A stretch of DNA of 59,298 bases, filler included, from Sphacelaria rigidula (Eukaryota), in the NCBI GenBank assembly GCA_964200075.2. It is 4 parts of 4 records of this genome, joined end to end, with 100 filler letters (N's around TTAATTAATTAA, not from the genome) between each part and the next. Parts side by side here need not be neighbours in the genome. Positions count along the whole stretch, not along the records: positions 29,703 to 44,451 come from CAXNAA020002066.1; 3 more parts are not named here. One strand, written 5' to 3'. Under the pieces are notes generated by a model. That model did not search any database. It was given only the letters and a program-made list of their open reading frames with translations, and was not told the DNA's origin. Shown here piece after piece: positions 16,291 to 55,200 of the stretch. The stretch's first letter is position 1. Every line of letters starts with the position of its first letter. A program made the position numbers and the translations under genes.

Positions 16291-17652
16291 GAATGATGGC
16301 CGTGATAGTGATGACCTGCCAGGAATTCGGCCTGATGGTCTCCGAGACCAAGGTAAAGTCTATGCGCCTTTGGTCAGTACCCAGTCCCACGGAGGCCACC
16401 CTGGATATCAGAGCTGCCGGTCAACGGTATAAGCAGACGGGGAAGTTCATCTACCTTGGTGGAGCTAACAGCGCGGATGCGAAAATGTCCATCGAAACCA
16501 ACCGTCGCATCAGCGCGGCGTGGGCGCGTATCCGAAAATATAGCTTCCAACTTTACGACCGATCCAACGCCGAGCTATCCTTGAAAGTTCGACTGCTTAA
16601 AGCGGAGGTGGTGGAAGCTCTGTTGTATGGGTGTGCCACATGGACGCTACGTTCTGAGGACTTCGACAGTCTGCGCACTGCCCATCACAAGCTCTTGCTG
16701 CGAGTGGTTGGATTCCGCAGGAACGATCGAAATGGCTACAAGACTTTTTCGTACAGAGCGGTGCTCGAGATGACCAACTGCGAACGTATCGAGACGACTT
16801 TCCGCAAACGTCAACTCTGCTTCGCGGGAGCCCTTGTCCGGCAGGAGGACAAACGCCTTTCCAAGCGTGCCATGAGCGGTCGGCTTTCCACACGAGGATC
16901 CAAGGAGGCCGGCCGCCCAACCAAGCAATGGGAGGATACCCTGGAGGAGAACCTACGTGCGCTAGGGGCTGTCCCGCAAAAAGGGGCCCGACGAAAGTGG
17001 TTCGTCTACGGTGTACAGTAGATGTTAACGATGCATACGATTGGGTCACTGCGGCGAAGGACCAGGGCAAATGGCATATTGGAGTCGAAAAGGGAGCGGA
17101 AGAGTTTGAGGACACGTGGCGACGCGCGGACAAGCGAGAACCAGACTGCCATCACAAGCGAGAGGCTGCTGCGTCGAGGGCTACCAATCGGAAAATCCTG
17201 TCCGCTCATATCGGTTGTTGATTACGTCCTTAGTCGGTGGCTCTGCGGTACCCACTGGTGTATGTCTGTATCTATTCTGCTGCCCTGAATCCCTTGGGCC
17301 TTTTCCTTCTCCTTTTTTTTTTCTTTTTTTTCCCATCGTTTCATTGCATTTTATCTTATTTTATTTGTACTTTCCTCTTCTCTTCCTTTTTTTTTTGTGT
17401 TAGGTCGGCCATTTCTTTCTGTGCTTTGCCTGTGTTGGCTTTTTTACTTTTATTTTTTTTTGTCACGACTTAGTCTGCTATGTCGTTCTGTTCGTCCCCT
17501 CTTTCTTTTTTCTTTCTGTTCCTTCTTCTTTTCTCAGAGCGTGTTTCAGTTTCGTGTTTCTTGGGTACATCTATTATGAGACCACGGCTGGACCCCTGGG
17601 GGGTCAGTTAAAGTACGACAATACAAAAAAAAACGATCAAAATCAATCAAAA
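16291..17652 (+). mobile_element. 5'-truncated RTE-type LINE (RT C-terminus, 3' UTR, tail)
   Basis: High colinear identity to 34080-35447. KFIYLGG..LLYGCATW motifs, a premature stop at 17019-17021 and the shared 3' stem-loop/CAAT tail. Confidence 0.92.
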
Positions 17653-29702: not shown

Positions 29703-30244
29703 GGAGTCAGGAGCGTGGAGTGGTGCGGCCGCGGGGGGGGCGGGTGGGGGGGGGCGGGGGCGGGTTAGCCAATGGTACATTTTTGCACGAAAATACCACT
29801 TAATATCGTCAAAAGCATGAACTTTTGTTTGAACTCGCTTGATACCGATAAGACACACCGATCCTTACTGCTTGACACAGCAATTTACAGCCAAATATAG
29901 CGCATCGCGAGTGTGTTAGATCAACCCGACACACCCATGAGCCCCTGTTTTTCATGCAATCTCACGCCCTTCCCCCTACCCTGAGAAAACTATTTCTGTT
30001 CCGAAAATCTACGTTCCCTCCCTTTCTCGAGTTCCGTCCAGTAGGTGCTTCCGTTTATGTACCTTTGGTGTCCACCTTGTATCTAATGACCATGGCCGTA
30101 TCCAAACATTTAGCAAATCAGTTGATGTTGATGTGCGATAGTCAATCAACCCATCAATCAATTATCCATCATTTGTTTTCTTCCGACCTGCTCTTTGACC
30201 CACGGTTGTCCTACCCGTAAATACTGTGTATAAGAAAAAAAGAC

Positions 30245-30413
30245 ACATTACTCTTTTCCTTTTTTACCCATCTCTTGCGTTTCCTATTTTTGCCACGGGT
30301 GTTCTCTCTTGTGTTTAACCTTGGGTACTGTACGCCCATCTCCATGCGGATCATCACCACGGCTGGATCCCCCCGGATCAATGAATGTTCATGTGCGACA
30401 ATCAATCAATCAA
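30245..30413 (+). mobile_element. RTE-LINE 3' end fragment
   Basis: T-rich tract followed by caccacggctggatccccccggatcaat...gtgcgacaatcaatcaatcaa. Confidence 0.75.
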
Positions 30414-30804
30414 GAACAAACCATGCGGTGATTTTTCATTACCCTATTTTTCTTCCTCGTCAGCAGTGAACAGACGCAAGGAAAAGATATTCATAGTCGG
30501 CCAATGGAACGATTCTCAGAGGTATGTTGCGTCTTCTGTCCTCGAAATCCCTTGACGAATACATGTGGCCAAAAGCTCCGTATGTTCCTTGGGGAGAAAA
30601 TGATTTTCCACAAGGTTCACTTTCAAACATGTCGCGGAAGATAATAACAGACACAAGCCACGATTTCTTTTTCATATAATGTCACTACAATACTCCACAG
30701 TACGCACCTACTATAGCGAGAGAAGCTTGCGGGGTAGAGGATAAAATGCACATATATGTAATTACGCTGAAGCCTTGCTGCAGGGGACGGCCATTTGTAG
30801 ATTT

Positions 30805-31092
30805 AACTCGTTGCATCTTTCATATTTTTTTCTTCTTCAAAACAAACTATTTCTTCTCCGTTCCTTTCCACTCCTTCCCCGATTGTTTTTGTCCATTATT
30901 TTTCAGTTTACGCCCTTCATCTCTTACATCTTTTTGTTTTTGTTTCCAATTTTCTTCATGACAACAGTGAGCCTATCGTTACTGCTCACGTTGAGTACGT
31001 CTACTTGTGTCTAATCACGGCTCGGACCTCTCGGATCACTTAGTATGCGACAATAAATCAATCAAACAATCAAACAAACAATCAAACAATTA
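30805..31092 (+). mobile_element. RTE-LINE 3' end fragment
   Basis: T-rich tract followed by cacggctcggacctctcggatcact...tgcgacaataaatcaatcaaacaatcaaac. Confidence 0.72.
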
Positions 31093-31139
31093 CTCAAACC
31101 ATGATACTATGGTTACCGACTATTATTAATAACAGTATA

Positions 31140-34100
31140 CATGTCGTCCACACGATACTACATTGGAACTGCTTACTCTGACCCTCCTCGACCGCCACCC
31201 GTCTGGGGTTGGTTGTGTCGGGGTAGGCTAACCCCGTCGACAACACAAGCAGTAAGTAAGGGAGGGTAAGTTGGCCTACTGGCTTACCTGCGTGTCGTAT
31301 CAGTGGTAACGCAACAAATAGCTTAGGTAGTGGGTCAAGTCGACGGTGCCAACGTCCACGCTGAATCCTGCAGCATCGGAGTTCTACCCTAGAACGGGAA
31401 CCAAACTGAACCCCGCAGCTGTAGCATTTTACCCGGCGTTGAGACACTGTCACGGAAAGTACGTTGATGGAGATGAGGCACGTGTGAGTAAGTATCAGAT
31501 TCGGCGGACTGGAGGCAGCGGCCGACGCGGGACGGGCAGGCTGAACCCTTCCCGCGAGACCAAAAAGCAAGGCAAGTACCGTGATCGACGTGCCGAAGAA
31601 AAATCGGAACAGAAACAACAGCTCGCCTGTAAAATTAGGAGGCGCAACAGACCAGAAAGGAGAGCAGAACAAAAAGAAACACGCGTGAATATAGAGAAGG
31701 CTAAAGCTAGGACACGTAGTGGGGAGCTCAAAGTGGCCACATATAACGTCCGTGCACTGTCCCCCACGGGAAAAAACGGAGCGGGCCATACTGAGGTGGT
31801 CCTGAAAAATGTCAGGCAGTCGGATGTGATGTCATCGGGCTACAGGAAACAAGGACACCAGGTCGATCCGAATTTTGTGCGGCGGGATGCCGCGTCTTTT
31901 GTTGCGGGGCAGAGGGGGGCAAGGGAAGGGCCGGTCAACACGGGGTTGGGTTGGCAGTCAAGGAGTCGATCATCAGCAAGGCGACTTGGACTCAGGCACT
32001 CATCAGCAAACGCCTCATGTCGATGACTTTCAACCTAGCGAGTAAATCAAATGCTGCCACGTTTGCCGTCGCATACGCCCCAACAGGCACTCCACAGTCA
32101 AGAGAAGAGATAGGTTTGTTCTGGACTGAGTTGGACGGCATTGTGAACTGTATCCCCACAAGCATCACCTCATTAATTTAATGGACGCTAACGCGAGGAC
32201 TGGACGACGAACAGGCGAGGAGGGACGTGAATTGGTAGGAGCGTACGGCCGAGATGCCCGATCCAACGACCGTAACGACAACTCTCTAGTACAATTTGCA
32301 GGCGACAACAAGCTTTCCCTGGTCAACACGCTCTTTTCCACCCCCAAGGGAAACACTTCGCGTACGTTCAACGGTGATGCAAATCGAACCGCGGACAGAA
32401 AACGCATTGACTACATCATCACACGGCAAGATCACCGCAGCCTCGTTCGCAATATCACCGTCCACCTTCAACCCCCCAACTCGCCGGAATCTGGCCACAA
32501 CATCGTGTGCGCCTCAGTGCGGCTCCTTGGTCGCTTCGCACACAAGAGACCTAGACGAATCCCAACTGTGCGTACACTGATCGACAGACGGGCATTAGTA
32601 TCTGACCCCGTCCGACGTGAGCAGCTCACCCAGCTCATCATCAGCGAGCTCGAACAGAGTATACCTGGTGATTCAGTTTGTTTACTGGCTACGAACTTTG
32701 CCGACGTACTCTTGAGTGCCACTGAAAAGGTGATACCCCGTCTGACCCGAAAGCCACGTATACCGGAGTGGCTCGAGGATGCTGAAATCAGAACAGAATT
32801 CGAACTCACTTGGATGGGGAGAGAAAGGGCGAGATCAACGGTGAGACTGGGGTCATCTCCAGATAAACTCGCATGGCGCACATTGCGAACAGCATTCAAA
32901 AAGATCAAAAACGTGATCCAAGTTGGGGTTGACAAATATATGGATGTGTATGCTAGAGAACTAGAGTAGCGTACTCGAGCGGGGGACATGAGAGGATGGT
33001 ACAGACATCTCAACGGAGGGTGGAGACTGCCTGGACGACCAATCGAGAGTGAACGGCACATTCGAGATGAAGACGGCAATCTACTGCGGGACAGAGGTTG
33101 GATCAGTGGGAGATGGGAACGGTACTTTTCTACATTGCAAAAACGCCATATCAGCAACTATCGACCGCACCATCATCGACAAGATTGCTCAAGGACCAAT
33201 AGAGTTGTCACTAGGAGACCCACCAAGCCCAAGTGAAACTGAGGAGGCTCTGAGAGCTATGTCGAATGGCAAAGCAACCGGTCCGGATGGTATTCCTGCT
33301 GAAATCCTCAAGCTTGGACTCAACAGGGAGGCGTCGGACATTTTGTACCACTTGGACATCTGGCGAGGTGCCGCAAGAATAGAAAGATGTTACCATCAAA
33401 GTGCTACACAAAAAACAGGATAGGACCCAGTGTAGTAACTACAGAGGCATTTCACTTGTGGTACATACTGCTAAAGTTCTCCTCGAAATCGTAGCCAATA
33501 GGCTCGGTGATTTTTGTGAGGAAACAGATGTCTCCCCGGAAGAGCAGTGTGAATTTAGGCGCCAAAGATCGCCCATAGACATGATGTTCATAGTACGCCG
33601 ACGCCAGGAGTTGCGACGGGCGAGCAATATCCCAGTAAACATGTGCTTTATCGATCTGCAGAAAGCCTACGATTCTGCAGACCGCACGCTCCTGTGGGAA
33701 GTGCTTGCTCGGTTCGGCGTCCCGTTGCGAATGATCACGATCATCCGTATGTTTCACGACGGCATGCGAGCTCGAGTACAGCTAGATAGTGGCGAACTAT
33801 CAGCGTGGTTCGAAGTCTGGCAGGGACTCAGACAAGGTTGTGTTTCGTCTCCGCTGCTGATCAACATCTTCGGGGCAGGCTTGGTGGATGTGATCGTTCA
33901 GCGGTTTGCGGCGGACCCACTCATCGTCTCAGACTTGGTATTTCTAGATGATGCGCCACGAGGTGTCGGTGATGAACCCGTGGAAGAGACACCGCTGGAA
34001 AAGGTGCGACACGCGGTGTGGGCAATGCTTTATGCGGACGACGCCGGCACAGCCTCGAAGACCTCAGAAGTCCTTGCTCGAATGATGGCCGTGATAGTGA

Positions 34101-35447
34101 TGACATGCCAGGAATTCGGCCTGATGGTCTCCGAGAACAAGACAGAGTCCATGCGCCTTTGGTCAGTAACCAGTACCACAGAGGCCACCCTGCATATCAA
34201 AGCTGCCGGTCAACGGTATGAGCAGACGGGGAAGTTCATCTGCCTTGGTGGAGCAATCGACGCGGATGCGAAAATATCCATCGAGATCAACCGCCGTATC
34301 AGCGCGTCGTGAGCGCGTATCCGACAATATAGCTCCCAACTCTACGACCGACCCAACGCCGAGCTATCCTTGGAATTTCGACTGCTTAAAGCAGAGGCGG
34401 TGGAAGCTCTGTTGTATGGGTGTGCCACATGGACGCTACGTTCTGAGGACTTCGACAGTCTGCGCACTGCCCATCACAAGCTCTTGCTGCGAGTGGTTGG
34501 ATTCCGCAGGGGCGATCGCAATGGCTACAAGACTTTTTCGTACAGAGCGGTGCTCGAGATGACCAACTGCGAACGTATCGAGACGAATATCCGTAAACGT
34601 CAACTCTGCTTCGCGAGAGCCCTTGTTCGGCAGAAGGACACACGCCTTCCCAAGCGTGTCATGAGTGGTCGGCCTCCCACACGAGGACCCAAGGAGGTCG
34701 ACCGCCCCCCCAAGCAGTGGAAGGATACCTTAAAGGAGAACCTACGTGCGCTAGGGGCTGTCCCGCACAAAGGAGCCCCACGAAAGTGGTTCGTCTACGG
34801 TCTAGAGGTTAACGATGCATACGATTGGGTCACTGCGGCGAAGGACCTGGGCAAATGGCATATTGGAGTCGAAAAAGGGAGCGGAAGAGTTTGAGTACAC
34901 GTGGCGACGCGCGGACAAGCGAGAGTCAGACCATCGTCACAAGTGAGAGGCTGCTGCGTCGAGGGCTGCCAATCCGATAATCCTGTCTGCTCATACCGGT
35001 TGTTGATTATGTTCCGAGTCGGTGGCTCTGCGGTGCCCACTGGCTTGTGCCCGTATCTACTTTGCTGCCCTGAATCTCTTGGGCCTTTTCCGCTTCTTTT
35101 TTCTTCTTTTTTCTTCTTCTTTCTTCTATTTTTTTTTCCCCATCGTTGTATTGTGTTTTATTCTATTTGCTCTGTACTTTCCTCTTCTTTTCCTTTTTCT
35201 TGTTTCAGGTCGGCCATTTCTTTCTGTGCTTTGCTTGTGTTCACTTTTTGATCACTTTTTCTTTTTGTCACGACTTAGTCCGCTGTATCGTTCTGTTCGA
35301 CCCTTTTTTTTTTCTCCTGCTGATTCTTTTTCTCAGAGCGTGTTTCAGTTTCGTTTTTGTTGGGTACGTCTATATCTCTCATGAGACCACGGCTGGACCC
35401 CTGGGGGGTCAGTTAAAGTGCGACAATCAATCAATCAATCAATCAAT
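31140..35447 (+). mobile_element. Near full-length RTE-clade non-LTR retrotransposon (APE endonuclease + RT), inactivated by frameshifts and stops
   Basis: APE motifs KVATYNVRAL, DVIGLQETR (after a frameshift near 31808), AYAPT, MDANARTG, IDYII. RT motifs KATGPDGIPAE, NYRGISL, FIDLQKAYDS, GLRQGC, LYADD. T-rich 3' UTR and (CAAT)n tail. The 5' boundary is approximate. Confidence 0.95.
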
Positions 35448-37087
35448 GTCGATGCGAAATATACACACATACTATATTTTCAGTGCATCAACTCCAACGA
35501 TAAGTCTTGACAGTTTCAAGCTCGGATATTCCTAGGCGAATCAACTCCTGCCCCTCCCTATATACACACCTAGAAACCACCCGCGCAAGATCCTGTAGTT
35601 TCGGCTTTACAAAAACACAAGGCACCGACAGAACTATTAAGACGAGCCAACCTACAGCTATTGATAAAGTACGATCTAGCCTCGACAATTCCACGACTAG
35701 TACGTTCCGCCCCGTCACCTACATGGCGCCGACAGCATGATGACGAATGTACCTCCGACAAAAAGGGTTATGCTCGTCATTTTAGACCGTCAGGTGAAGG
35801 TGTCCGCACGGCCTGCTCAACCCTCAGCCACAACAGTACATATGGTAGGAACAGCGTCAGCACCCTCGATCACACATATTACGCGAAGGTTGGTCGGCGT
35901 CCTAACCGTATCCTCGCGCGAGCGAAAACTCACCAACAAGCAATCTCTCTACCGTAAAAACGACAAAAGTCGCTTTCACTGTACGAACGCATAACCTCCA
36001 TGTTCCACTGCTTCGCAAGGAAGCCTGTCGGCCCCCCTACCGAAAAAAATAACACGAGATCGGAGCTCGACAAACCAGCGACATCAAGAGACGGGACGTG
36101 GTCGCACAGCGAGACGTGGGCGTTGGGAAATAATGCTTCTGGCGTCTGCAGCGATGTAACCGACAATATCGCGGGCATATTTCGCCAGGACAGGCGACAA
36201 GATTCATATCTAGAGTGAGAGGCACCCGGGGGACTTCAAACTCAGATAAGCCGAGATTTGAGGGATAGATTGTAGGGTGTGGATATTATATTTACTAAAC
36301 GGCAAAATTCCAGCAAATCCTGCTGAAAATACGAGTACAAAGGGAGTCGATGTTTACCGAGACACAAGATGAGACCATGAGACACAAAAAAAAACACAAG
36401 GAGCAAAGGTGGTGCGAGCGATAGATACTACACATGTACGCACCCGGAGCCAGCTGCTGGGCCAGCGCCTCCATCTGCCCAACCCTGTCGGCGAAGGTCT
36501 CATCGTCATCCTCCATAGCGTCTTCATCATGGTGTGGGTCATCACGGTTCCCATGCCCGTTAGCCATACGCCGTTTCCCCTTTCCTTTACCTCGGGAAAC
36601 TGTCCGGCAGGCCGCCAACCAAGCCCACCGCCCCCAACCCCCCATCCCGCGGGCAACAAACGCAGTATCGGTGGGAGTATGAGTCGATGACAGGGCCAGT
36701 AGTTCTACACATGTATGTTGTGTGTGTGTCGTCACCCCATCTACAGTAGTCAGCATCAGAAGTATGCAGCATTCGTAGATTCTTAGTTTCTCAAAGCTTG
36801 TCCAATTTTTTTTCGCTTGCCACCGCTCACCACACTGACTGTTGGATGCCAAGAAATGGGCATCCGGAGATATTTGAGTCCTCTTCACAAATATCGAAAG
36901 AACGAACATCTGCGATCAATATTTGAGTGACTTACGGGCTTGACCGATCTTTGGGGGGTCCTGCGAAAATGCGACCCCAGGTTCTTGCTTTTCGGTATTT
37001 TCGGTGGACCGACTCGATCCCGGTCATAAAAGGGAAGACGCAAAAAGGATCGCGTTTATGAAATTCCACCTAGTCACTGCGCTCAAG

Positions 37088-37574
37088 CCGGGGAACTGTG
37101 TTTCTTTTTTTTACCATTTACGGTCAGTAACACCCTCCTGATAAACGGGGTCTTTACCCGGTATCGCCCCCACAACACTAACTTGGGCAATTGTGATTTG
37201 AGCACGGTTTGCTTATTTTGCCAAAACTATCGACGCTAGCACTTTCGAGTGCTCATAGAAGATGTTATGCGAAAACCCCCGAAAATATGCCTGTGCAGTA
37301 TAGGAGGGAAACACGATCTCAATCGCTATTGTGTGGAATTCTATACGTATTCATTACTTTGAATATTTACCGTTTCGTTGCGGAAGAGCGGGAAAACTGC
37401 TTATATTGGACCAAAAACGGTCAATAGCTCCCTCCTGATGAACGGGGTATCAAGTCCGTATCGCCCCAAAAACACCAACTTGAGCACTGCAGTTTGAGCG
37501 CGGCCTACGCTTTTTCCCTATATCTACCGGCGCTAGCACTTTCAAGTAGTAGTGAAGAATAGTATGCTAGAAAA
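37088..37574. repeat. Diverged direct repeat pair (~190 bp, ~300-bp period)
   Basis: ccctcctgat.aacggggt...gtatcgcccc...aactt...tttgagc.cgg...cgctagcactttc at 37088-37275 and 37388-37574. Confidence 0.75.
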
Positions 37575-37624
37575 GGTAAAAAACTACAACAAGTACAAAT
37601 TCTGAAAACTTCTGATGCTGACTG

Positions 37625-37964
37625 CTATATTCTGGACGCCAGTCTAGACCTGTCGGTGTATGTGGGCGCATGAGCCAGGGCTACACAGGAAGATGAACAT
37701 CGGAGTTTTTCTTTATTTTCGTTTGTTTTTAATATCTCCACCTTACTTCTACGGTGTTTTTTTTTTTTAACCCGAGGAGGTTTCAGCGGTGCCTTGCCCT
37801 GGTCGACCGTGAAGTGGAACTTCGTGTATCCACGACATCGTCGTTCTCCACCGTTGGGCATCATATGAGAAAAAATCCCAGATCGTGTGACTTCGAGATC
37901 CGACCCCACGTCACAACCGTCATGAGGTTCCGAGGTTACAACCTGAGCCACAGAGGCGGCCGGC
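37625..37964 (-). mobile_element. tRNA-derived SINE, family 1
   Basis: Head gtggctcaggttgtaacctcgg; body shared with the other two copies. Confidence 0.75.
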
Positions 37965-40900
37965 ACATAAACACAGGGTGAAGTCAGATGACGCACGTTG
38001 CCGTGGACAATCCAAGGGTGCTTCGGGTGGGGTACTGTACGGGTAAGGGTACGGGTAAATGTTTCAGGTGTTTCAGGTGCTCCGAACTTCTCGATATTTT
38101 TCTTAGGATCATACCTGACGGCACCCAGAAAAAATTGCGAGTTTGGGCGATCGATATCTTGAGACACTGTGGGGTACTCGGTACGTCTTACACGCTTGAG
38201 AGCCCAGGGTACTTTGCCCTGAGCACGGTACCTTACGACTCTCAAGCATCCGTGAAAAAAATTAGATGCGACGCATTTTCGCTCAAAAGTTGACGAGAGA
38301 AAAAAACAGGCAGCAAAAGATTTCGCACCACGCTATTTGGCATTGGACGTTGGCCATTGGCCATGTTTTGACGCCGACGACCGTGACTCTCATCACCGTC
38401 CTGCCCAAAAATCCTACCGAGAGCACGCCCCGTGTTTCAAGTTTCATTCGTCATGTTCTACACGTGTGCACCGTGACGGCACGAGGACAGCCGCAACTCA
38501 GGCGTGACTCGGTACATGTAAGGTATCACCTGTCTTGGTGTCTAGTTCTCGGCCATGCCTTCGTACGTGTGTTCAACCTCTTCTCTGTTTGCCTCCTTCT
38601 CCATGTTTCTTGTGCTGTGGTTCTAATAATCGTATCGTCTTCGCGAGTGCCGCCAGGGTGAATACTCCTGTTCCACGAGTTTTGCCCCGTGTAGTTACCA
38701 AGGATGCCGACCAACCTCAAGACATGTGCCAGCACCCACCCAAGTACCAGTAAGGGCCGTTACTTTCGTTTTGGGCACCAACCCCAGTGAAATGCTGAAC
38801 AAGATTTTTTTTTGACAAGAGTACCTGGATGTTCCTCGTCTTCATCTCCACTGTCCCTGTGTCCGTTGGCTGGTGGAGTGGGCGACGAGCGAGAGCCATT
38901 GGGCTGGCGACGCTTCAACGTACGTCCGGATTCCTGTTGGTCATCATCCACATTCAGGATGACGGCAAAACAAAAAATATGAGGTCTTCATGGATCATCC
39001 GCGTATTGAATCTCCTTCATAATGAGAAAATGAAGAAAAAAGTGCATGTTTCAGGCACGGATCGGATGAGCAGTAGTATAGTAGGAGGAAGAGATACGAG
39101 GGGAGTGAGGGATTGGCTGGGGCAGGGGGCAGGGGGCTCGCGGGGGGGGGCAACAGTTGGCTTGATCACGCTGCTGGCTTCACCGTTGTGGAACAGGTAG
39201 GAACAGGACTCAGGATTGTAGATCTAGTGTAGAGAGAGTCAGCAGCTTCCCTCCGAGACGGGGCTGGAGTCGTCGGAGGATAGTTTTAAAGCAATCCACA
39301 CCATTTATTGCGCTGCAAGCTCAACTGTCCCCGGCATGATGACATCCGCTGCTGTGTGCACTATACATATTTTGTGGCGCTTGTTTGAAGAGCGCAGGAA
39401 ACAGCACCACGTGTAGATTCAGCGGGGGGGGGGCAGTCTAGTGCGGTATAATATTTGAGGATAAGCAATGACTGGCCACATTGCGTACGACTCAACCTTT
39501 GAAGGAGCGGATTGGATCGTACCTACTGGAGGGGTAGGTCTTGAGTTCACAGGACAGCGTGATCAAAGAAAAATATTAAAAACAAGTGCAAGAGAAAGGA
39601 TAAGCATTTCCTTGGTCGAAAATTGAGGTGTGATATTTGACGTTCGAAAAATAGGAAGTACGGGCGTTGCTTGCTCTTGTGGACAACTTCGCGATGCCGC
39701 CCTGGCACCTCTTCTTCGAAACGTGCACCCTCCAGAGGCTACACAACCAGGGTCCCAAGAAGTAACGATTTTCACCGATCCTATGGAGAAAAGGCCTGCG
39801 GAGGGGTGATGGTTTGCAAGCCAATTTCAACCGCCATGAGGTGCGGCCCTGCTTCACCGCCTCAAAAGGGACCGCGCTAAAGTGGGGGACACCATCGGAT
39901 GCCGTGGAGCACGACGTACGACTGTACACCTGTCCTCGTGTATTTGACAAGAGAGTCAAAAACCACCCTGGGAACCGTGTCAGGGTACAAGAACAAGATT
40001 CAAGTAGAGATCTTCACTTCACTTCAAGCAATACTCAATTTCTGGTATCTGAGAACAACATCAACTATCCAAGGGTGTGTAAAAGTGAGGGGCGGGGAAG
40101 GAGTGTTCTCATAATCTTGCATGCCGTAGTCATGAGGCCATTGACCTCGCATTCCTACAAAGCCGGGATGGAGCACGCCGGTTTTTCGCCGGACCCAGCT
40201 CGCAATCAAGCTCCAAGCGCGAAGCGCCGTGATGTGTTCGGCGAGTCGCATGAAGGGTGAGCTGCATCTTGCTGAGATTGTTCGGCTCGAGGCGTGCTGG
40301 AATATTTTGTTAGTGGATTGCAGCCTGCAATGAGTTGCTTCACTGTTACATCTAGTTGTGCCACTTCCAGAGAGACAGCCACGGGTCACACTGCCTCATG
40401 GGTATCGCACCATATTGTGTGTGTGTGGGGGGGGGGGTGATCGTTCGGTGTACAAAAGCACTGATAATTCGAGATTTCTATACACACGCAAAGTTATTTT
40501 CCCGAACGAGCACTCGTGGATAATGACTTCCCCAACTCCGTCGCGAGACCGTGATTGGACCACCACCCTTCTTCGTTTCACTACTCCCGTACTGTGCTCA
40601 GCCCCTATCCTGTCAAAGGAGATTGCCAGAGGACTACAAGCTACTGCCACATGTGACAGGAGCTGGCGGGTTTCAGTGGACTGGCCAGTGGAACAGAACA
40701 TGAAGTACCAGAGGTGTTCCAGTACACCGAGTTGATTCCCCCGGAGCGGTTACACACAGAATCTCGAATTTTTAGTGAACTGCTGATGCCATGCTGCCGA
40801 AACTTGGACCTGGAGTATTCATTGAATATATCTTGCTGAGATATTCCGCAACACCGTATCTTTCGACGGCAGAGCGGCCGGGCTCTTGAGGCCATGTCTC

Positions 40901-43403
40901 ATCAAATTGTTTTCGTGTCGAAAACGTGCGGTCGGATCGAATTCCCTTGTTTCCGATTCGCCCAAGCTCTTTATTTTCTCAGATGGTTGAGAACATGGAT
41001 GCCGTGGTCGTATCAGGTAAGAGCAAATTCGATTCCACCGTACGTTTTGAAGTCGAAGACAACTTGATAAGACACGGCCTGACTGTGAAGAAATTGGATG
41101 TTGGATTTTTGTATCACCTGGGGTGGTATACTCCGTGACCTGAACTATACCACTGCGTGCGGCCACCGTATCCTGGGATCGGCTCAGAGGGGGCTATGAA
41201 TAGGTGTCGACACAAATATAATAGTGCAGCCAGTTTTGACCTGCATCTATTGTTGAACTTGTTGACTTGTTTCGTTGGTGCTGCTCACGGCGTCGCTATG
41301 CTGGAGTACAGTACACAACATGTACACGTTTTCGTGAACAAAACGCGCTCTATAATAGAGAAACCACAGAGTACTCGGGACAGAGTAGATGCTCGGAGTC
41401 GTGAGGTGACATTTAGTACAAAGAATGAACGATGATGTCCTCTCGCCCCTCGCAACACCCTCGCAACTTCGCGTGCTTACAAGTGAACGCACATTGCAGA
41501 TCCTCGTTCAGTATTCGATTGAAGAATGGATTTTGTCGAGGCAGGGGTGTGGGGACTCATGTTAGGGGGTGAGCACGCTGAGTGTGACTCGCCTTTGACG
41601 CACCTTCCGGCAAACTCGGCAACTGCAGCAAACCACCAGATACAATCCCGACAAAACAGCCCATTGCTTTAGGGGTAAGCGATGTCCTCCAACGAGTACG
41701 TAGGTCTGCAGTATGGTACGTGACGACAGTACGAGTATACCGTCCGCGTATGATAGTTGTACTTTGAGTATTGATGCAGTGAGGTTTTCATCAACTCGTG
41801 ATCAACAAGAAGGGTCATATCTCAATTTTCAAAATGGAGACAAATTTCTAGCTTGTGCCCCCCTAGACCATATTGGACTGAGCGAACGGCAACGGGATGC
41901 ACAGACTTCTGGAATCACCGACTTTGTGCACCTACACGCGTGCAACGAAGAGTACATGAAGGAAAGGCCTTACTGTGCCACAGTGCAGTACATGCACAAG
42001 CAATACAACGCCATCTGCGAACTGCATGTCGCTTCTCCCATCATCATATTCAACATGTTTTGGTAACTTTTGACAAGAGAGAGCGTTTCAATCGGGGGCA
42101 GGCGACCACCACCCTGGCGGTAGAGCAGAATAAACACATACGCCAGACGGCCCAGGCAAGAGAACAGCGTAAGCGTTGCCAGGTATGAATAAAAAGAGAT
42201 GTGCTTGCTGGTTGCAAAACACATGCTAGACGGGGGCAAATTCGGGTTCCGCTACGTGTGTGCTGCAATTTTGCAAGATGGATCCCGCCAATTTGGCTCA
42301 ACCCCTCGGGTCGCTGCGGCCAAATTTGAATTTTGGTGTTCAGTACAGTAGCTAGGGCAGGCGACCACCCGTCCCCCGTCTTGTAGTGTAGGATACGTGC
42401 TGGACTTGAGGAATGTGTCGACAGGAGAAGGCCATGCGTAATATACTGTATGCAGCATACCGACATAGGGGGGGTGCGGCGGTGTGCCCCTTTGTGCATA
42501 GTTATTGGGCAAGATGGCTGAAGGCTTCGACATGGTGCCACAGCACGAACTGCATAGGTCAAAACCCCGCTACCCTGCGAAAACGGAGACACCAACAGCT
42601 GAAACCCGCTCTGTTGTTTACAACTCCGGAAGTGGGATACCATGACTACACCTCGTTATCTCCCGCATCCGTAGAGTCTTCTAGATCGGACCGTCGTCGT
42701 GTCGGCATCTTTGCTGTAGATCTTCGAGGACCAGCTCCCTTGTTTTCGTTTACGCTTGTCGCCGCATTTTTGCTTTGGTGCACGCCTTGCACTTTATTAC
42801 ATGTTTTTACTATTGATAGAAGACAATGACATTTAGTTCCCGTTGACCACCTCCCCGACTTCGGCCATTTGCTGCGGTCGCCGAACGGGTGGTACGACAG
42901 AGATCTTCCCTACTGTACGACATATCCTTTGTGCTGAACGTTTTGTTGTTTCTGCGCGCTGCGCCATCCATGCGGCGAAAATGGGGGCGTATTGTACAAC
43001 CGCCCCCCTTATACTGCTACTACTACTGCCTGTACTACAGTACGACAAGGAAGCAGGGAAGTCGCGGATAGGTCAGAGGGGCTCCATGCTTTGTATCCCC
43101 TTTGGAGTTGTGGATGTAGGCGAACTTACTGTCTCCTTGTTTCCAGTCATGTTAAAAGCTAAGCAGGTGTGACTAGGAGTACCCAATGAATGCGGTGCAC
43201 CCGTCACTGGAGAAACAATGGCGGAGAGGAATCTTCTTGTCCGTGACCTTTGTGTGTCTTCGTTCGGCGATTCCCAGTCGCTTGGGAGGCTCAGAGGAAA
43301 TGATCGGCGAACATAACGTTGAGCACAAGCGTCTGTCGAAAAATGATTTCTGGACACGTAGCCCCCAAGATCGAAAATTTGAGTTTTTGAGGGGAGCGGG
43401 GGG

Positions 43404-43516
43404 TTAACCCTTAGATCGCGAGGGTATAGTAGGTCACGATGAATCGGCATCAATATTCACTTAAACAATGTATGCGTGATCCAGATGGACTACTCGCACC
43501 GCGGTCTAAGGGTTAA
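43404..43516. mobile_element. Tiny piggyBac-like MITE (~105 bp) with TTAA target duplications
   Basis: TTAA-CCCTTAGATCGCG ... CGCGGTCTAAGGG-TTAA. Confidence 0.78.
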
Positions 43517-44451
43517 AGGGGGGGGGGGCGGGCACCCAATCTGCTGTACCCTAGTTTATTGCCGAGGCGTTGGTGGATACGGTTAGCTGCCGTGTACAGA
43601 GATCCTTGGCATGGATACCGATAAGATGGCAGACCCGCCGCTCCCCCAAGCTCATCACATACCATGATTACCTTTATTTACGGAATCATATCCCCTGTCG
43701 TGTGCCTCAAGTACCTACCAGCAGCGGATTCTCAAAAATGGGGTTGAACGGGGGTACATCAGGATTGGAAATGACCAAACCCAACCCCCTTCGAACTTCC
43801 TTTGTGGGCCCGATTTTTCAACAAAACACGTTTGTTTGTTTTTTCATATGTTGCCTAGAGGTCGGAAATGGTTTCTGCAACCATTAACCAGTAAAATGGT
43901 TGTTCGTAGCGCAGCAAGCAGTAGCCAGTAAACGGTTTTTAATAGTGGTTTGGTCATCGAGCGGCGCAGGCGCGAGCCAAAAAGCCTCCCTCGGCAGAGG
44001 GGGCCCCGCCGAAGGCAGGTTTTGACACGATTTCGCTTCACTGGAAGAACTGATAAAATACGCGAATTATCGGCAAGAAAGTCGGTAGCGGTAAATAATA
44101 GTCGTTTGAAACCATTATTCAATCTTTTCATATAACCATTTCCATTATTACCATTATAATGATAATGGCTAGTTGTTATTGGTGCCATTTACAAGCTCTC
44201 ATGTTGCCGCTACGTGCCGCGTTGGTTTCGAGGCGAGATCTCGAGGTGCCGAACACGTTCGTGCGTTGGACGGCGACCTGTACAACAATGTATGTGCGCC
44301 ATGGAAAAACGTGTAGGGGGACAACGGGGGTGGGCGGTGGGGTGTACTCATGATGATGCGGTGGGCGGTGGGTGGGTGGAGGGAGGGGGGGGGGGGGGGG
44401 GGGGCGATCGTTTTTTTTTTTTGTTTTTTTGTTTCTCAGAAAACAACTCAC

Positions 44452-49265: not shown

Positions 49266-52200
49266 CTAGAGGCCGCCTCTGTCTCCACCCCCCGACCCTT
49301 GACCGCCTCCCTCCAAAAGCTTCCCAACGGCCGTGCCCTCCAAGTGAGTGTTTGTGACGGTCTTGAACGTCCTGTTAAATGGTCAAAACCCCAAGCAGCG
49401 GCGCAATCGACGAAGGTCAAATAAATTTGTTCATGGAGTCGGATGATGGAACACCTCGTCACGATACGAATATGTTCGGGTTGCTGAGAGCGACCCTGAA
49501 AAAACATTAGTCGGAACATACCGTGTGCTCCGTTACACCACTTGAAGCACGAATGGAAACGATAGGCGAAGTGAGGGTAAGCGCAGCGATGAAATCTCCA
49601 GCAAAGGTTCCCGTGTACGAGCATAGAATGTATCTCGCAATTCTCCGGGAGACATTCCATCATATCAAGACCCCACAATTCCAGCTCAACAGCGGACCAA
49701 TTTCCCACTCCCGACAAACAATTCACAAACTTGACCCGTCGAAACAGTTCCCCCAAAACCCATGGAAAACAGGGAGCGCCGCGAGTATGCGATACAGAAC
49801 ACACACAGGAGTTGCACTCAATTCGCCGAGAAAAACTGCGGAATTATCCCGCGTGAAGTGATGGGAAAACGCACCTCCCCTTGAGCTTTCGCTTGAGAGC
49901 TCTCTTGATAGCCCTTTGCTCTCGCAGCACACTACCGTCCGGCGCTTTTCGCTTCGGTCGCTTCAGCGGCGCCCCCTCCTTGCTCTTTGTCAGCCCCTTT
50001 TTGAACATCACTTGATGCAGCTCGACGGGATCTTTTGGCACCTAGGCATGAACGATAGGAAATATTGGCATCGACGTGCACACGTGTTCAATCCCGAAGC
50101 ACGATGGCCATTGACAGGAATGGTTGATAGATAGATCGCCTCATAGGAATTGATCCGCTAGGATCCCAGCTGTGGTCGCAAGAGAGACGTGAACCTCGGT
50201 AAAATAGAAACTCCCTGTGAAAAATGCTTCAGTGGAACAAAGACATGACAAAGAAATGAGAACCAAAAGCAAGAGGGCGAGCAAACAACTTAGGCTGACA
50301 GACATGCAGAACGAACAGCGCTCGCGGGAAAACCCCCGATAGAGGGGGAATAGTAGGGAGCAAGGACGTCGGAGAGATTGCGATTCATCTATAGGCGAAC
50401 CACATTTTTGGGAAAACAAACTACACCCCAAACAACAGGTAGAAACCAACATTAACACGGCGTACAAGACGAAGTAGGAGAAAAAAATACAAGCCAGTAA
50501 GAAGGCAACGCTCGGGAAGACAAGCTGGAGTAAAAGAGCAAATCTCGTGCAACCCCCCCTCCCGCCCAACCGTCATTCCTAGTCAGAGACAAAACGAGCG
50601 CTCTGTCTCGACTCTACTTTCAGCTCTTCTTCCTCATGGGCTGTTGTTATAATCGTTGCGCAAATGGTGGTGGCTTCACCCGCAGCAACTTCTTCCTCAT
50701 AGAGTGGGTTAGATTGGCGAAGATCCTCGCGTAGACAGGGGTTCTCGAACTACCCCAGTTCCTCCTCGATCCGCCGGTGTTTGCCCACGTTTCTCGCGAC
50801 AGAGACCCACTCCTGAGAGTCCTTCATCTCAGCATCGTGAAAGAACCCCTTTCGTCGTCTTTCTTTTCACCATGCTAGACGGAATCAACTGGCTGGTGAA
50901 GACAAAATTCCATCTAACTTCTGCTCTCTCAATTACTATCAAATTGTTTTTCTACAACGGATTCGCGGCGCCCCCGTAGGACCGTCAATACAGAATCTTT
51001 TGCGCATGTTCAGTGCGACACCTCTTGCCCCACGGCGAATGCCCGTGCTTTAACCTTGCTCGAGTGACCCTCTGGTTGGAGACCTACTTGGGATCGGGTG
51101 AAACGTATCGAGCGTTGCAGGGGTTGCTTAAACAACCAGCGGAACAAACCTAACCGATGATCAGCGAAATGCTGCCTTTGCAGAGCTACCGCGAGGCAGA
51201 AAAAACGGCAATATCCCCACAAGTAACTTCTCTGGGGTTGCCGAGATCTTGCGAAGCTACTGGAACATTACTTCACGCCTGTGGAACAAGTATAGTGCTT
51301 AGCGTAGCAGCGGCGTGCTTACGCCGGACAGCAGGACCAGTCACATGCGAAGTGGCCGGAAGCGCATCAACATCCCGATCCTTCGCCGGAGTCTGAAGAC
51401 CGTCCCGATTAAGACAGGCACGATACACCAAGGAACATACTCTCGAAGCCCCAGTGTGTCGAGCGGTTCTTGATCAAGATGGCCTTCAGATTCTATCGTT
51501 GGGTCGGAGTGTCGATGCGCTTCCGGTCACCTCGATTGTGACAGTCTCGGCTGCCTGAGCAAAGCACGCCGCAGCTCCTCTGGGCATCATGCTTCATGAC
51601 GAAGCTTTCCTGGGGACTTCTGTGCCCCGAGGATTTAGTATCCGGGATGGTATAAAATCATCCCTGGTCCACCACGAGTATTTCCCCCCCCGTATCACCC
51701 ACCGCAATGTCCACAAACGTTTTTCGGTTGAGTCGGCTAACTGTGCCATCTACGAGTAAATCTCTATACCGGCCAGCCGAACCGGTCAATTACTCCCGTC
51801 CAAAGTGGTTCGAAATAGCCCCAGATGCACACAGATTTTCCTTGCAGCGGTGCCCCAAGTGCTTCGAAGGTCGGTCGGCCTTCGTTGAGCAGCACACCGC
51901 CGGGATGTAATATGGTTTTGGAATCCTGTCAGACAAGAGTCTTCACGAACAAGACGTGGCGCCTGCGGGAAGTCGACTCAACACCTTCGCCTCCTCCAAT
52001 CTGGAGTGCAGCTCTCTATGGAAGATTCTTGAGCTCAATAGGATCCTTAGCGCCGAAGCCAACAATTCTCAGCAAGGGCATGTGACGAACACTGCGCAGG
52101 ACCTTCAAGTACTCTGGGCACCCGCGTCGTATACTCATACAAATATGCCAGCTTGCATCGCCTCTGCTTGAGTCGTTGTATCCTCAGCGATAGCTGCGCA

Positions 52201-55200
52201 TTGGGCCCATCGTAGAGTTGGGAACAACACATCCTGAGGTGCACTTGCGCGACACTGATGCGGCGCGCAATACCCGCATCCTCGTTGATAACACCAATCA
52301 GGTAAACAGACTCAGTCATCCGTTCGTATCGCTGTCCAGCCGCCTCGATTCGCAGTGCGGACTGTGGGGATTTGACAGCTGTCCATAGATGCATGACCAC
52401 TCTCTTCGTCTCCGATATTGCTAGTCCGAACTCTCGGCAGATCATAACCATCACAGCCATTGTCCTAGCAAGCCCGCTTCGAGACCTGGAGACTGCGCCG
52501 GCATCACTTGTGTATAGCATTTCGATACCGCGTGTCGCACGCTCTCCAGCGGTGTCTCATCTTCGTAGTTGCCATTCTCATTCTTCTGCACAGCACCTAG
52601 TCGGGTTCGCCATGAATCGTTCCGAAACCGCGCCGGTTACCACGGCGAGGAAGATGTCGAACCACAAAAAGGACAAAAATCATCCCAGCTTGAGGCCCTG
52701 GTAGACTTTGAACCATTCCGATATTATACCATTATCCACACATCACCGAGCTTGCACGCAATCGTGAAAGACACGAACAAACTTGATAATCCGCGGCGGA
52801 ATTCCGAAGTGGACAAGCACTTTCCACATGAGAGTGCGGTCGACAGAGTCAACCACGTTGTGAAGGTCGATAAAGCACATGGCGAACAGGTTCTTGCTCG
52901 CCCGTCCGAACTCATTCAGTAAGCGCACAACGCACGTCACGTCGGTGGTCAACCACCAGCGTCGCAATCCGCACTGTCCAGGAAAGCACTGCCTCGTCGC
53001 GAAATCTACCGCGTTTGTCGACTACGATTTCACTCAGTACTCCCATCCGGATGCGCCACAAGAAAGTTGCCCTTAGGTACCAAACCCCAACTTATCTCAC
53101 TCGTATCGTACTGTCATCGTTGCGTGCTCCCAATCCTCCGAGACCTCGATGGACGTCCACACAGCAATGACGATGCGGTGAAGGTATCACAACATTTCTC
53201 GAGGATCCCCGGAAAATTTACTCGTGATGGAATCAGCAGCTAGTCCATCCAGTACATGCGCTGCCATTGCTTTGCTGTCGACCACAGTTCTCAGCCCATG
53301 GCGATCTATCCAAATTTCGCACCCTCACTGGCGATAGAGCTCTTGGCACTGGCATGATGTCCTCGATGGCAGTACGATCGATAGTGGCCGATGTTGTATT
53401 CAGCAACGAGTCGAAGTGCCATTTCCATATTTCACGAATATAATCGAAAGCTTCCTCGTCTCCCCCTAAATTCACGGCTGTTTCCCCACTTTGTGCCCGC
53501 AGCCTCAATGTATGTGGGAGATGCCCGTACAAGCACTAAACTCCCGACTTCTGCTGTACTCCGCCAGGGAGGGAATACAACCCGAATGATGCTACGGTAG
53601 GGTTGCACTTTTTGGCAAATCGAAGACGTACCGGGACAGAATCTGGTGAATTAAATTAGCGGGCGAACCCCGTATCACGAGCCAAACCTCCCACACACAG
53701 ATTACGGTAACCCAAAGTGAATTGACAAAAGCGTGACTGTGGCCGAGTGTTCAAAATTGAAGACCTATCCACGATCAGACGGGGGACTAAAACATGGGAG
53801 ACGTCCTGTTTCACCACTGTACCGCAGCAAAAACACTCAAGCCTTCCCTCATGTGTTGGAGCTTCCACTGTCTGTTGTGTCGTGGTGTATTCACGCATTG
53901 CGAAGACGGTTTGGATTGCATGAGCTGCGATATTGTCGTTGTGTTCGTCTCTCCAGAAAACAATGTTAGTCGGCACGCAGTGCTGGCTGCACACTGTTGC
54001 AAGCTTCATGGGTGAGTTGACTGTTTCGTCTTCCGTAAGACGAACAACGCGCTGTCCGTTGCTGCGACACCCCTGCTGGTGCCGTGCGTTGGGTGCCTGT
54101 ACTGTACCGTACTGTTGTACTGTGTTCGATGTACAATTCTGTATTATCTATTATACTGTTGTATTTGTCTGAAACGCGCTACGAGTTAACCCGCACAACA
54201 GTTGGTTTTAGACTACTACCCTGGCGATTTCCAAGCGAAATGGAGCGATATGATTGGTAAGTTACCGACCGATCTGTCCCGCTCCAAATGCAGTCTGCCC
54301 ACTTTTTGAGCGAAAATGTTTCTCGGGGTGTTGCACGGATCATTTTCAGAATCGGCATCATTTTCACTTTAAAAAGACTGAAAATGATGCCGATTCAAGA
54401 AAAATCCCCCGTGTGCATCTCCATGTCCTGTCCGCGGAGGTGTGGGTTGCACAGTAAGCCCCATATATTTGGGCTCCTGCAAAAACGATACCCAGAAACA
54501 AAAAGTGCAACCCCTATCGTAGCATTGCTCACCTCGGTGTAAAATAAAAAGTACGCGCGCCACTTTTGCCATTTTCACGACGATCAACAGCGGGAAAACG
54601 AAAGCAAGACTCCCCGACGCACGTGGCACGCCAACACACAGCACATGTTTGCACGTGTTGAGGAATTACATTTCACCTTTGATTCCGTGTGCGTCGATGG
54701 ATTGATGGAAATGGGGCCCCTTCTATCTTTTAGTGGGCACTTGAGCCTATCCACGCCTCTGCTCAATTTTCGATGTTAGCTGTCAAATTCTCCATGATTA
54801 CTTTTCACTTTCGGCACCTCAAAAGTCATCGACACAAGCTCTGCAGCACAACCAGCATGGTAAAGTAACGCGTGTCGCCGTTCCAGACACATGCAAGAAC
54901 CAGCAGCACTTATCATGACATCTGAGAGAAAGTCTTCATTGTACAGCGAGCCTGTTTCTTCTATTTTTTCAATAGTTACGGAGTACAACTGCAGTGCGGC
55001 GAATCATGGCACAGTTGCACATGCATATCTCATGTCGGAGGTGACGAGCTGTTATCAAACATTTCATCGCTGTCTACCTCTGCTGCAGTTTTCCTCCATA
55101 GCTCTCGGAGAGCCTTGCAGCACCCGTGTCGAACCGCGCGTCCTTCGAAGTCTTGTGCCCCCTCGTAATTCTGGAGTTGACAGGGACAAAAACAACAGCG

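Follow-up and report, generated by a model that had tools for sequence, protein, structure and literature searches.

Putative PAM2-type motifs at the N-terminus of an RTE-type LINE protein from brown algae

How the protein of a long interspersed nuclear element (LINE) chooses its own mRNA, a behaviour called cis-preference, is a long-standing question, and a contact between the ORF2p protein and PABPC1, a poly(A)-binding protein (PABP), was proposed for human L1 only in 2025. The same question is raised by a LINE copy in a 59,298-nucleotide stretch of DNA (filler included; hereafter the window) from the brown alga Sphacelaria rigidula (assembly GCA_964200075.2), in which parts of four records are joined end to end. 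The copy lies in the part taken from CAXNAA020002066.1 (positions 29,703 to 44,451), and its protein begins with two tandem sequences that resemble PAM2, the short motif bound by the MLLE domain of PABP. The original prediction, made from the window alone, was that this element, which ends in (CAAT)n rather than poly(A), may recruit host PABP directly through its own protein. Here we report that the two motifs are present, that a motif of this type recurs at the same place in diverged relatives of the element, and that together with their form and position this points to a probable contact with host PABP.

The relevant reading frame, at 31331-32026 on the plus strand, opens directly after an in-frame TAG (31328-31330) and runs uninterrupted into the start of the endonuclease, until about 31805-31810. 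From the N-terminal end it encodes STLNPAASEFYP (31355-31390), RTG, TKLNPAAVAFYP (31400-31435), an Arg/Lys-rich stretch with 27 K or R among 73 residues, and ELKVATYNVRAL (31724-31759), which is the beginning of an apurinic-type endonuclease. The element ends in (CAAT)6 at 35424-35447, with a short G+C hairpin sequence just before it. On recomputation, the coordinates and the common reading frame of motifs and endonuclease given in the original prediction were all correct; the basic stretch behind the motifs, the (CAAT)n end and the synonymous codon differences between the motifs that it described were found as well. The observation of two N-terminal PAM2-type motifs is confirmed.

The canonical PAM2 consensus is LNxxAxEFxP, and binding to the MLLE domain of PABPC1 depends mainly on F at position 10; two hydrophobic pockets take up L and F (or W), N stabilises a turn, and A must be small (PMC7356810, as given in the sections consulted). 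Both window motifs fit LN..A..F.P and carry L, N, A, F and P at PAM2 spacing. In a six-frame translation of all 59 kb of the window, the pattern [LF]N..A..[FW].P has two matches, which are the two motifs themselves, and 200 residue shuffles of the same frames gave a mean of 0.07 matches with a maximum of 2. The Pfam PAM2 model (PF07145), a scan suggested along with the original prediction, scored the window protein at 24.2 bits (E=2.3e-5, two stretches summed), above the curated gathering cutoff of 20. The motifs belong to two 15-residue repeats that share eight identical residues (L, N, P, A, A, F, Y and P) and differ at all seven other positions. Synonymous codons are used at five of the eight identical residues, and nucleotide identity between the repeats is 26/45. 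Such a codon pattern would be expected from an old duplication with selection on the motif residues.

The window copy itself is dead. Its N-terminal frame has no ATG, and it contains at least five frame breaks or in-frame stops, located near 31805, near 32130-32180, at 32967-32969, between about 32990 and 33383, and at 34310-34312; many family copies have one additional base behind 31804 when contigs are compared. The state of other copies was read from Logan contigs of four public runs, aligned to 31100-32150 at a likeness of at least 80%. This stretch was covered by 1082 contigs in run X1 and 1055 in run X4, and some 1000 contigs per deep run indicate that the LINE family is highly repeated. 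Contig depth climbs from 40 to more than 7000 at 31172-31207, and loose ends with unlike flanks occur at 31184 and 31189 in both X1 and X4, from which we put the element's 5' end at about 31185-31190.

At position 31338, T replaces A in 2155.9 of 2193.3 depth in X1 (21 contigs) and in 4579.6 of 4652 in X4. This majority base turns AAG at 31337-31339 into ATG, and the start codon of the family is therefore 31337. The original prediction had looked to GTG 31346 for the start; we reject that candidate, as ATG stands at 31337 in about 98% of the family depth. Its expectation for the motifs fared better, since they are present in other copies, in frame and directly behind the start codon. Database fragments also begin with M at the place of codon 31337 (for example P0004, P0006, P0009, P0011 and P0015). 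Several other matches begin with M at the Val-GTG of the window, so the gene caller behind these records appears to take GTG starts. A second change, 31395 C>T, is found in 3447.2 of 4064.5 depth in X1 and converts ACG at 31394-31396 into ATG in most copies. This codon lies between the two motifs and aligns with the start Met of single-motif relatives (P0210, P0117 and others). Translation from either Met, 31337 or 31394, would leave a PAM2 motif at the very N-terminus. The family was compared with the window at the 40 best-supported of 285 differences, a small sample, in which all three majority differences listed within the two 10-residue cores (31363, 31375 and 31426) are synonymous. None of the runs listed as containing the stretch is recorded as RNA, and the contigs of X6, whose RNA origin is only guessed, are no proof of transcription.

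Relatives of the protein were sought with an exhaustive HMMER search of 1.84 billion representative proteins, using the N-terminal 160 residues as query (E<=0.001). This search returned 88 matches, all of them short gene calls on copies of this LINE group; one of the ten that were looked up was named, and it came from Sphacelaria rigidula. A search with the RT (reverse transcriptase) part for longer proteins gave 242 matches at E<=1e-10, and the named relatives among the best 120 of these are all from brown algae: Ectocarpus sp., Cladosiphon okamuranus and Nemacystus decipiens. Among 25 proteins of at least 900 aa, judged by eye and by alignment, the endonuclease is preceded by 110 residues or more in six. 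In four of the six the motif stands 2-4 residues after Met, and all four are intact open reading frames (ORFs) of 1199-1240 aa: P0117 (1205 aa, N-terminus MGSVLNPNAMVFVP, RT 57% identical to the window), P0120 (1223 aa, MPFIFNPNAKEFIP, 58%), P0119 (1199 aa, MRLNPEAPVWTP, 56%) and P0113 (1240 aa, MGLNPKARAWTP, 59%). The pattern is also kept within their clusters, by 9/9 members of the P0119 type, by 2/2 of the P0120 type and by 7/8 of the P0117 type whose N-terminus is covered; the exception is a 158-residue fragment in which I replaces F. P0210, a cluster mate of P0090, begins MGFKLNPGAVEFFP, and the form MGFKLNPxAxEFFP is common to P0210 and the fragments P0008, P0056 and P0080. The motif is therefore found at the same aligned place in diverged families, intact ORFs among them, as the original prediction requires.

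An alignment of 17 N-termini (A1) has the consensus M...LNPxAxxFxP...HxxGKR...VSKxxxR...GRRGxGxLxPxxETK...ARKxRRRxR...ATxNVRxL. Five of its columns are nearly invariant, including both motif prolines, P26 and P33. At the shared motif position, nine of the 17 rows have the full [LF]N..A..[FW].P, six are one defined position off, and two are without it. The shared motif is motif 2 of the window, which is common to all subfamilies; motif 1 occurs only in rows of the window's own subfamily, and the alignment indicates that a tandem duplication of 15 codons gave rise to it, upstream of motif 2 and with a new start. Across 268 fetched proteins (145,399 residues) there are 34 matches to the pattern, 33 of them within the first 60 residues; the 34th, found at residue 81 of a gene call that is extended at its N-terminus, corresponds to the homologous site; the endonuclease, linker and RT parts of the same proteins contain no match.

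Between families the x positions of the motif vary (PNAMV, PNAKE, PEAPV, PKARA, PRAKP and PGAVE), and at the aromatic position the sole change seen in intact ORFs is F to W. The W-type motifs, LNPEAPVWTP and LNPKARAWTP, belong to the P0113 and P0119 clusters. A maximum-likelihood tree of 23 long proteins unites every lineage with an F-type or W-type motif in a single clade (support 100/99), within which the two of W type form one subclade, and lineages with a degenerate site lie outside; the root of this tree is a midpoint only, with which gain and loss of the motif are not distinguishable.

We built an AlphaFold2 model of the window N-terminus on alignment A1. Residues 1-80 have no secondary structure in the model, with a predicted local distance difference test score (pLDDT) of 48-62; the basic region, residues 81-128, is modelled as one long helix, whose pLDDT is 91-93 across residues 91-120. 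The motifs lie in this tail without predicted secondary structure, where they should be accessible, as a docking peptide should. The helix region contains the conserved block ARKxRRRxRxxRR, and the modelled basic helix (31577-31720) could be a nucleic-acid-binding or nuclear-import element. A further block, GRRGxGRLNPxRETK, is encoded at 31520-31564, about 60 residues past the start, and reads LHP in most copies (31544 A>C). It is kept in all subfamilies, including those without a clean PAM2; it repeats L-N/H-P and has neither aromatic residue nor proline at PAM2 spacing.

Together, these results make it likely that the N-terminal PAM2-type motifs bind the MLLE domain of the host's cytoplasmic PABP, since they match the consensus at every defined position, stand right behind the start, occupy a conserved site and, in intact ORFs, change F only to W, as PAM2w, the W variant of the motif, does. 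The MLLE domain of PABP is general among eukaryotes. In the mechanism that we propose, the motif, which emerges from the ribosome before the rest of the protein, would catch PABP on the tail of the mRNA under translation, and the nascent protein would thereby be held at the 3' end of the RNA that encodes it. The RT could then find the 3' untranslated region (UTR) and the (CAAT)n template end at that place, and the outcome would be cis-preference and assembly of the ribonucleoprotein (RNP). Co-translational tethering seems the most economical reading because the N-terminus emerges first and PABP sits on the mRNA tail. The doubled motif of the window subfamily may raise avidity for PABP multimers. 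On a bolder reading, which we hold doubtful and in which such capture of PABP is a general LINE strategy, the contact in an element with a (CAAT)n tail would mean that PABP tethers the protein to its own translating mRNA rather than reading the template tail, and the F-to-W switch in one clade and the duplication in another would represent a tuning of the contact between host and parasite.

Several observations weigh against this reading. The DNA copies end in (CAAT)n and not in poly(A). The motif can be done without, since in two intact lineages, P0137/P0256 and P0143, the corresponding site is merely degenerate. P0090, which represents the largest cluster (2648 members, RT 69% identical), is called from a downstream start. 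Relatives with a single motif mostly score under the PF07145 cutoff (16.8 bits for P0117 and 14.4 for P0120), and the Pfam PAM2 model gave no match on P0119, P0113 or P0210. Among the 88 N-terminal matches, many of which do not cover the N-terminus, PAM2 is found at E<=0.01 in only seven and at 20 bits or more in three, and precomputed Pfam annotation has PF07145 in none of the best 120 of the 242 RT relatives. Over the whole N-terminal coding part, only seven of 19 listed majority differences are synonymous, a mild sign of constraint. Taken as a whole, the proposal of PABP recruitment through the N-terminal motifs is, as far as sequence comparison goes, partly supported.

What else might account for the motifs? 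The copy in the window is a pseudogene, without a start codon and with its frame broken at least five times, and a chance resemblance in such decayed sequence would be functionless. We regard this explanation as hardly credible: it would have to produce two adjacent matches where 0.07 are expected per window, to recur in the intact ORFs of other families, and to place 33 of 34 matches within the first 60 residues. A different objection is that the N-terminal peptide serves some other partner, or is constrained at the level of nucleic acid as an internal promoter or translation-start context, with an incidental likeness to PAM2. Most single motifs do fall below the Pfam cutoff, and other conserved blocks adjoin the motif. 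False positives are frequent when short linear motifs are predicted, and the 5' ends of LINEs often contain internal promoters. Yet codons change where residues stay, at five of the eight identical repeat residues, and the x positions differ widely between families, which speaks for a constraint acting on protein sequence rather than on DNA or RNA. The five residues that define PAM2 are moreover all present at PAM2 spacing, and the key aromatic changes in intact ORFs only from F to W, as in PAM2w. We therefore think both forms of this objection improbable.

A rather stronger competitor, which we still consider unlikely, grants that the motif binds MLLE and assigns it another role. It may act in the manner of Paip1 or LARP4, raising translation or the stability of the LINE mRNA, or it may compete for one and the same MLLE cleft with decay and silencing factors that bear PAM2 (PAN3, Tob or GW182-type proteins) and so block deadenylation of the transcript. 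Proteins with PAM2 and PAM2w are expected to compete for MLLE in a mutually exclusive way (PMC7356810, in the sections consulted), protection from deadenylation has also been proposed for the contact between L1 ORF2p and PABPC1 (PMC7617806, likewise), and the doubled motif of the window subfamily would suit a competitor. A LINE protein, made in tiny amounts, would however be a poor global competitor, and a co-translational role accords better with the strict place of the motif, which in four lineages comes right after Met. The present evidence does not separate a role in translation or stability from one in cis-preference.

The candidate motifs of the LINE resemble those of cellular proteins in several respects. 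The PAM2 motifs of Paip1/2, eRF3, ataxin-2, Tob and PAN3 have L, N, A, F and P at equal spacing. LARP4 and LARP4B carry the tolerated W variant, PAM2w, near their N-termini (PMC7356810), and the same W at the F position marks one LINE subclade. The eRF3 motif is also near the N-terminus, as is that of the LINE, where it falls in the tail without predicted secondary structure, and eRF3 has two adjacent PAM2 motifs (PMC4829321), as does the window subfamily. The likeness, drawn from the parts of these sources consulted, is not complete. Ahead of F the LINE motifs often have A, V or P, where the PAM2 consensus has E, and the LINE carrier is an endonuclease-RT protein rather than a host factor of translation or decay.

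The nearest known case among LINEs is human L1, in which RRM1 of PABPC1 is the predicted partner of the PIE, residues 272-297 of the ORF2p endonuclease linker (Ghanim et al. 2025, PMC7617806). According to the parts of that article consulted, mutations in the PIE abolish co-localisation with PABPC, alanine substitutions disrupt retrotransposition, and the direct contact with PABPC1 is proposed to set cis-preference co-translationally and to aid RNP formation. Both elements would be LINE-encoded sites of PABP contact in the protein's N-terminal portion. They are set apart by place and by kind of motif: L1 has a linker element directed at RRM1, whereas the brown-algal protein has a PAM2 of 10-12 residues directly behind Met, for which the C-terminal MLLE domain is the expected partner. 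Copies end in poly(A) in L1 and in (CAAT)n here, and the elements differ in clade (L1 against RTE-type) and in host (mammal against brown alga). We consequently treat the relation to the L1 PIE as an analogy of function and not as membership of one class. The differences in clade, host and motif type argue that the two, if both are real, had independent origins. It is conceivable, though we hold it doubtful, that LINEs have a general strategy of capturing PABP with the nascent N-terminus, one that evolved two or more times, by way of PIE and RRM1 in L1 and by PAM2 mimicry and MLLE in brown-algal RTE-type elements.

Direct recruitment of PABP by a LINE protein is no longer new, given the published proposal for human L1. 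What is new here is the apparent mimicry of a host PAM2 in an RTE-type element with a tail other than poly(A), in brown algae. A full-text literature search, with subscription journals mostly outside its reach, found no PAM2 motif described in any retrotransposon protein, and the literature that treats both PAM2 and LINE-1 mentions the two topics separately in the portions consulted. If the contact is real, an unrelated LINE clade in a distant host would give independent, convergent support for co-translational capture of PABP, and retrotransposons would join the parasites that mimic short linear motifs of their hosts. The system is simple to test, with a 12-residue peptide against one small domain, and the N-terminal feature has been overlooked by automated annotation, as its lack of PF07145 in the best 120 of 242 relatives illustrates.

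The element is assigned to its class by layout and tail. Intact relatives have Exo_endo_phos and RVT_1 within one ORF of 1199-1240 aa, the single-ORF arrangement of the RTE type, which lacks a distinct ORF1, and the window copy has RVT_1 in 33383-34312 (E=2.6e-25, Pfam scan). The 3' end is the short tandem repeat (CAAT)6 and not poly(A), and short-repeat 3' ends are typical of RTE elements. On ORF layout and 3' tail we class the element as RTE-type, a label meant here to span RTE and RTE-X. Brown-algal LINEs of these groups are well represented in a census of transposable elements in Ectocarpus, where RTE (three families) and RTE-X (seven families) are the most abundant LINEs (PMC12477816, main text). 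Their abundance in that census and the brown-algal origin of the named relatives lend the class some indirect support. Like the window element, they have a single endonuclease and RT ORF, exist in a very large number of copies and are often 5'-truncated. PABP has no occurrence in the main text of the census, which describes no N-terminal motif in the text consulted. The features of the window copy are collected in Table 1.

Table 1. Layout of the LINE copy, with positions counted along the whole window
Feature	Position	Strand	Remarks
5' leader	31190..31336	+	147 bases, scanned for ATG with none found; contig depth step and loose ends
Start codon position	31337..31339	+	AAG here, ATG in ~98% of family depth
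PAM2-like motif 1, STLNPAASEFYP	31355..31390, core 31361-31390 LNPAASEFYP	+	tandem duplicate, subfamily-specific
Second in-frame Met position	31394..31396	+	ACG here, ATG in most copies
PAM2-like motif 2, TKLNPAAVAFYP	31400..31435, core 31406-31435 LNPAAVAFYP	+	common to all subfamilies
Conserved N-terminal blocks HCHGKY, VSKYQIRR, GRRGTGRLNPSRETK	31445..31564	+	from alignment; without predicted secondary structure
Basic region, one long predicted helix	31577..31720	+	AlphaFold2; directly upstream of endonuclease
Apurinic-type endonuclease and linker	31724..32969	+	frame breaks near 31805 and 32130-32180; stop 32967-32969
RT and C-terminal region	33383..34894	+	RVT_1; in-frame stop 34310-34312; ORF end 34894
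3' UTR	34895..35447	+	ends in (CAAT)6; same 3' end in truncated copy 16291-17622

Other searches with the N-terminal region added little. Among 575 candidates in a word-based search, no longer protein with the 160-residue N-terminus reached E<=0.001, and a second such search with A1 over proteins of 2194-5000 residues gave 22 long fused gene models that are uninformative on the motif. The 45-residue double-motif segment had no match among PDB chains at E<=10 and nothing usable in an Atlas search, in which P0117 led only to generic endonuclease-RT clusters. Three of the database gene calls, P0016, P0042 and P0249, begin MGSEMCIRD or MCIRDR. We take this peptide to be translated sequencing-library adapter, and these three records are presumably chimeric.

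The window contains further traces of this and related elements. At 16291-17622 there is a second, 5'-truncated copy of the LINE, 87.4% identical over 1361 bases to the 3' part; its tail is degenerate, with the conserved hairpin followed by GACAAT, a run of nine A and CAAT/CAAA-like units. Just upstream of the full-length copy, at 31040-31090, the 3'-end-like sequence GCGACAAT is followed by CAAT/CAAA-like units and preceded by T-rich sequence resembling the 3' UTR, and this stretch is probably the remnant of an older truncated copy. A (CAAT)3 lies at 30399-30410. The window as a whole has 264 N and 50% G+C. Weak similarity to the element's RT part (two nucleotide matches, 64-70% identity) is also present at 52052-52913 on the minus strand and probably comes from a more distant LINE relative.

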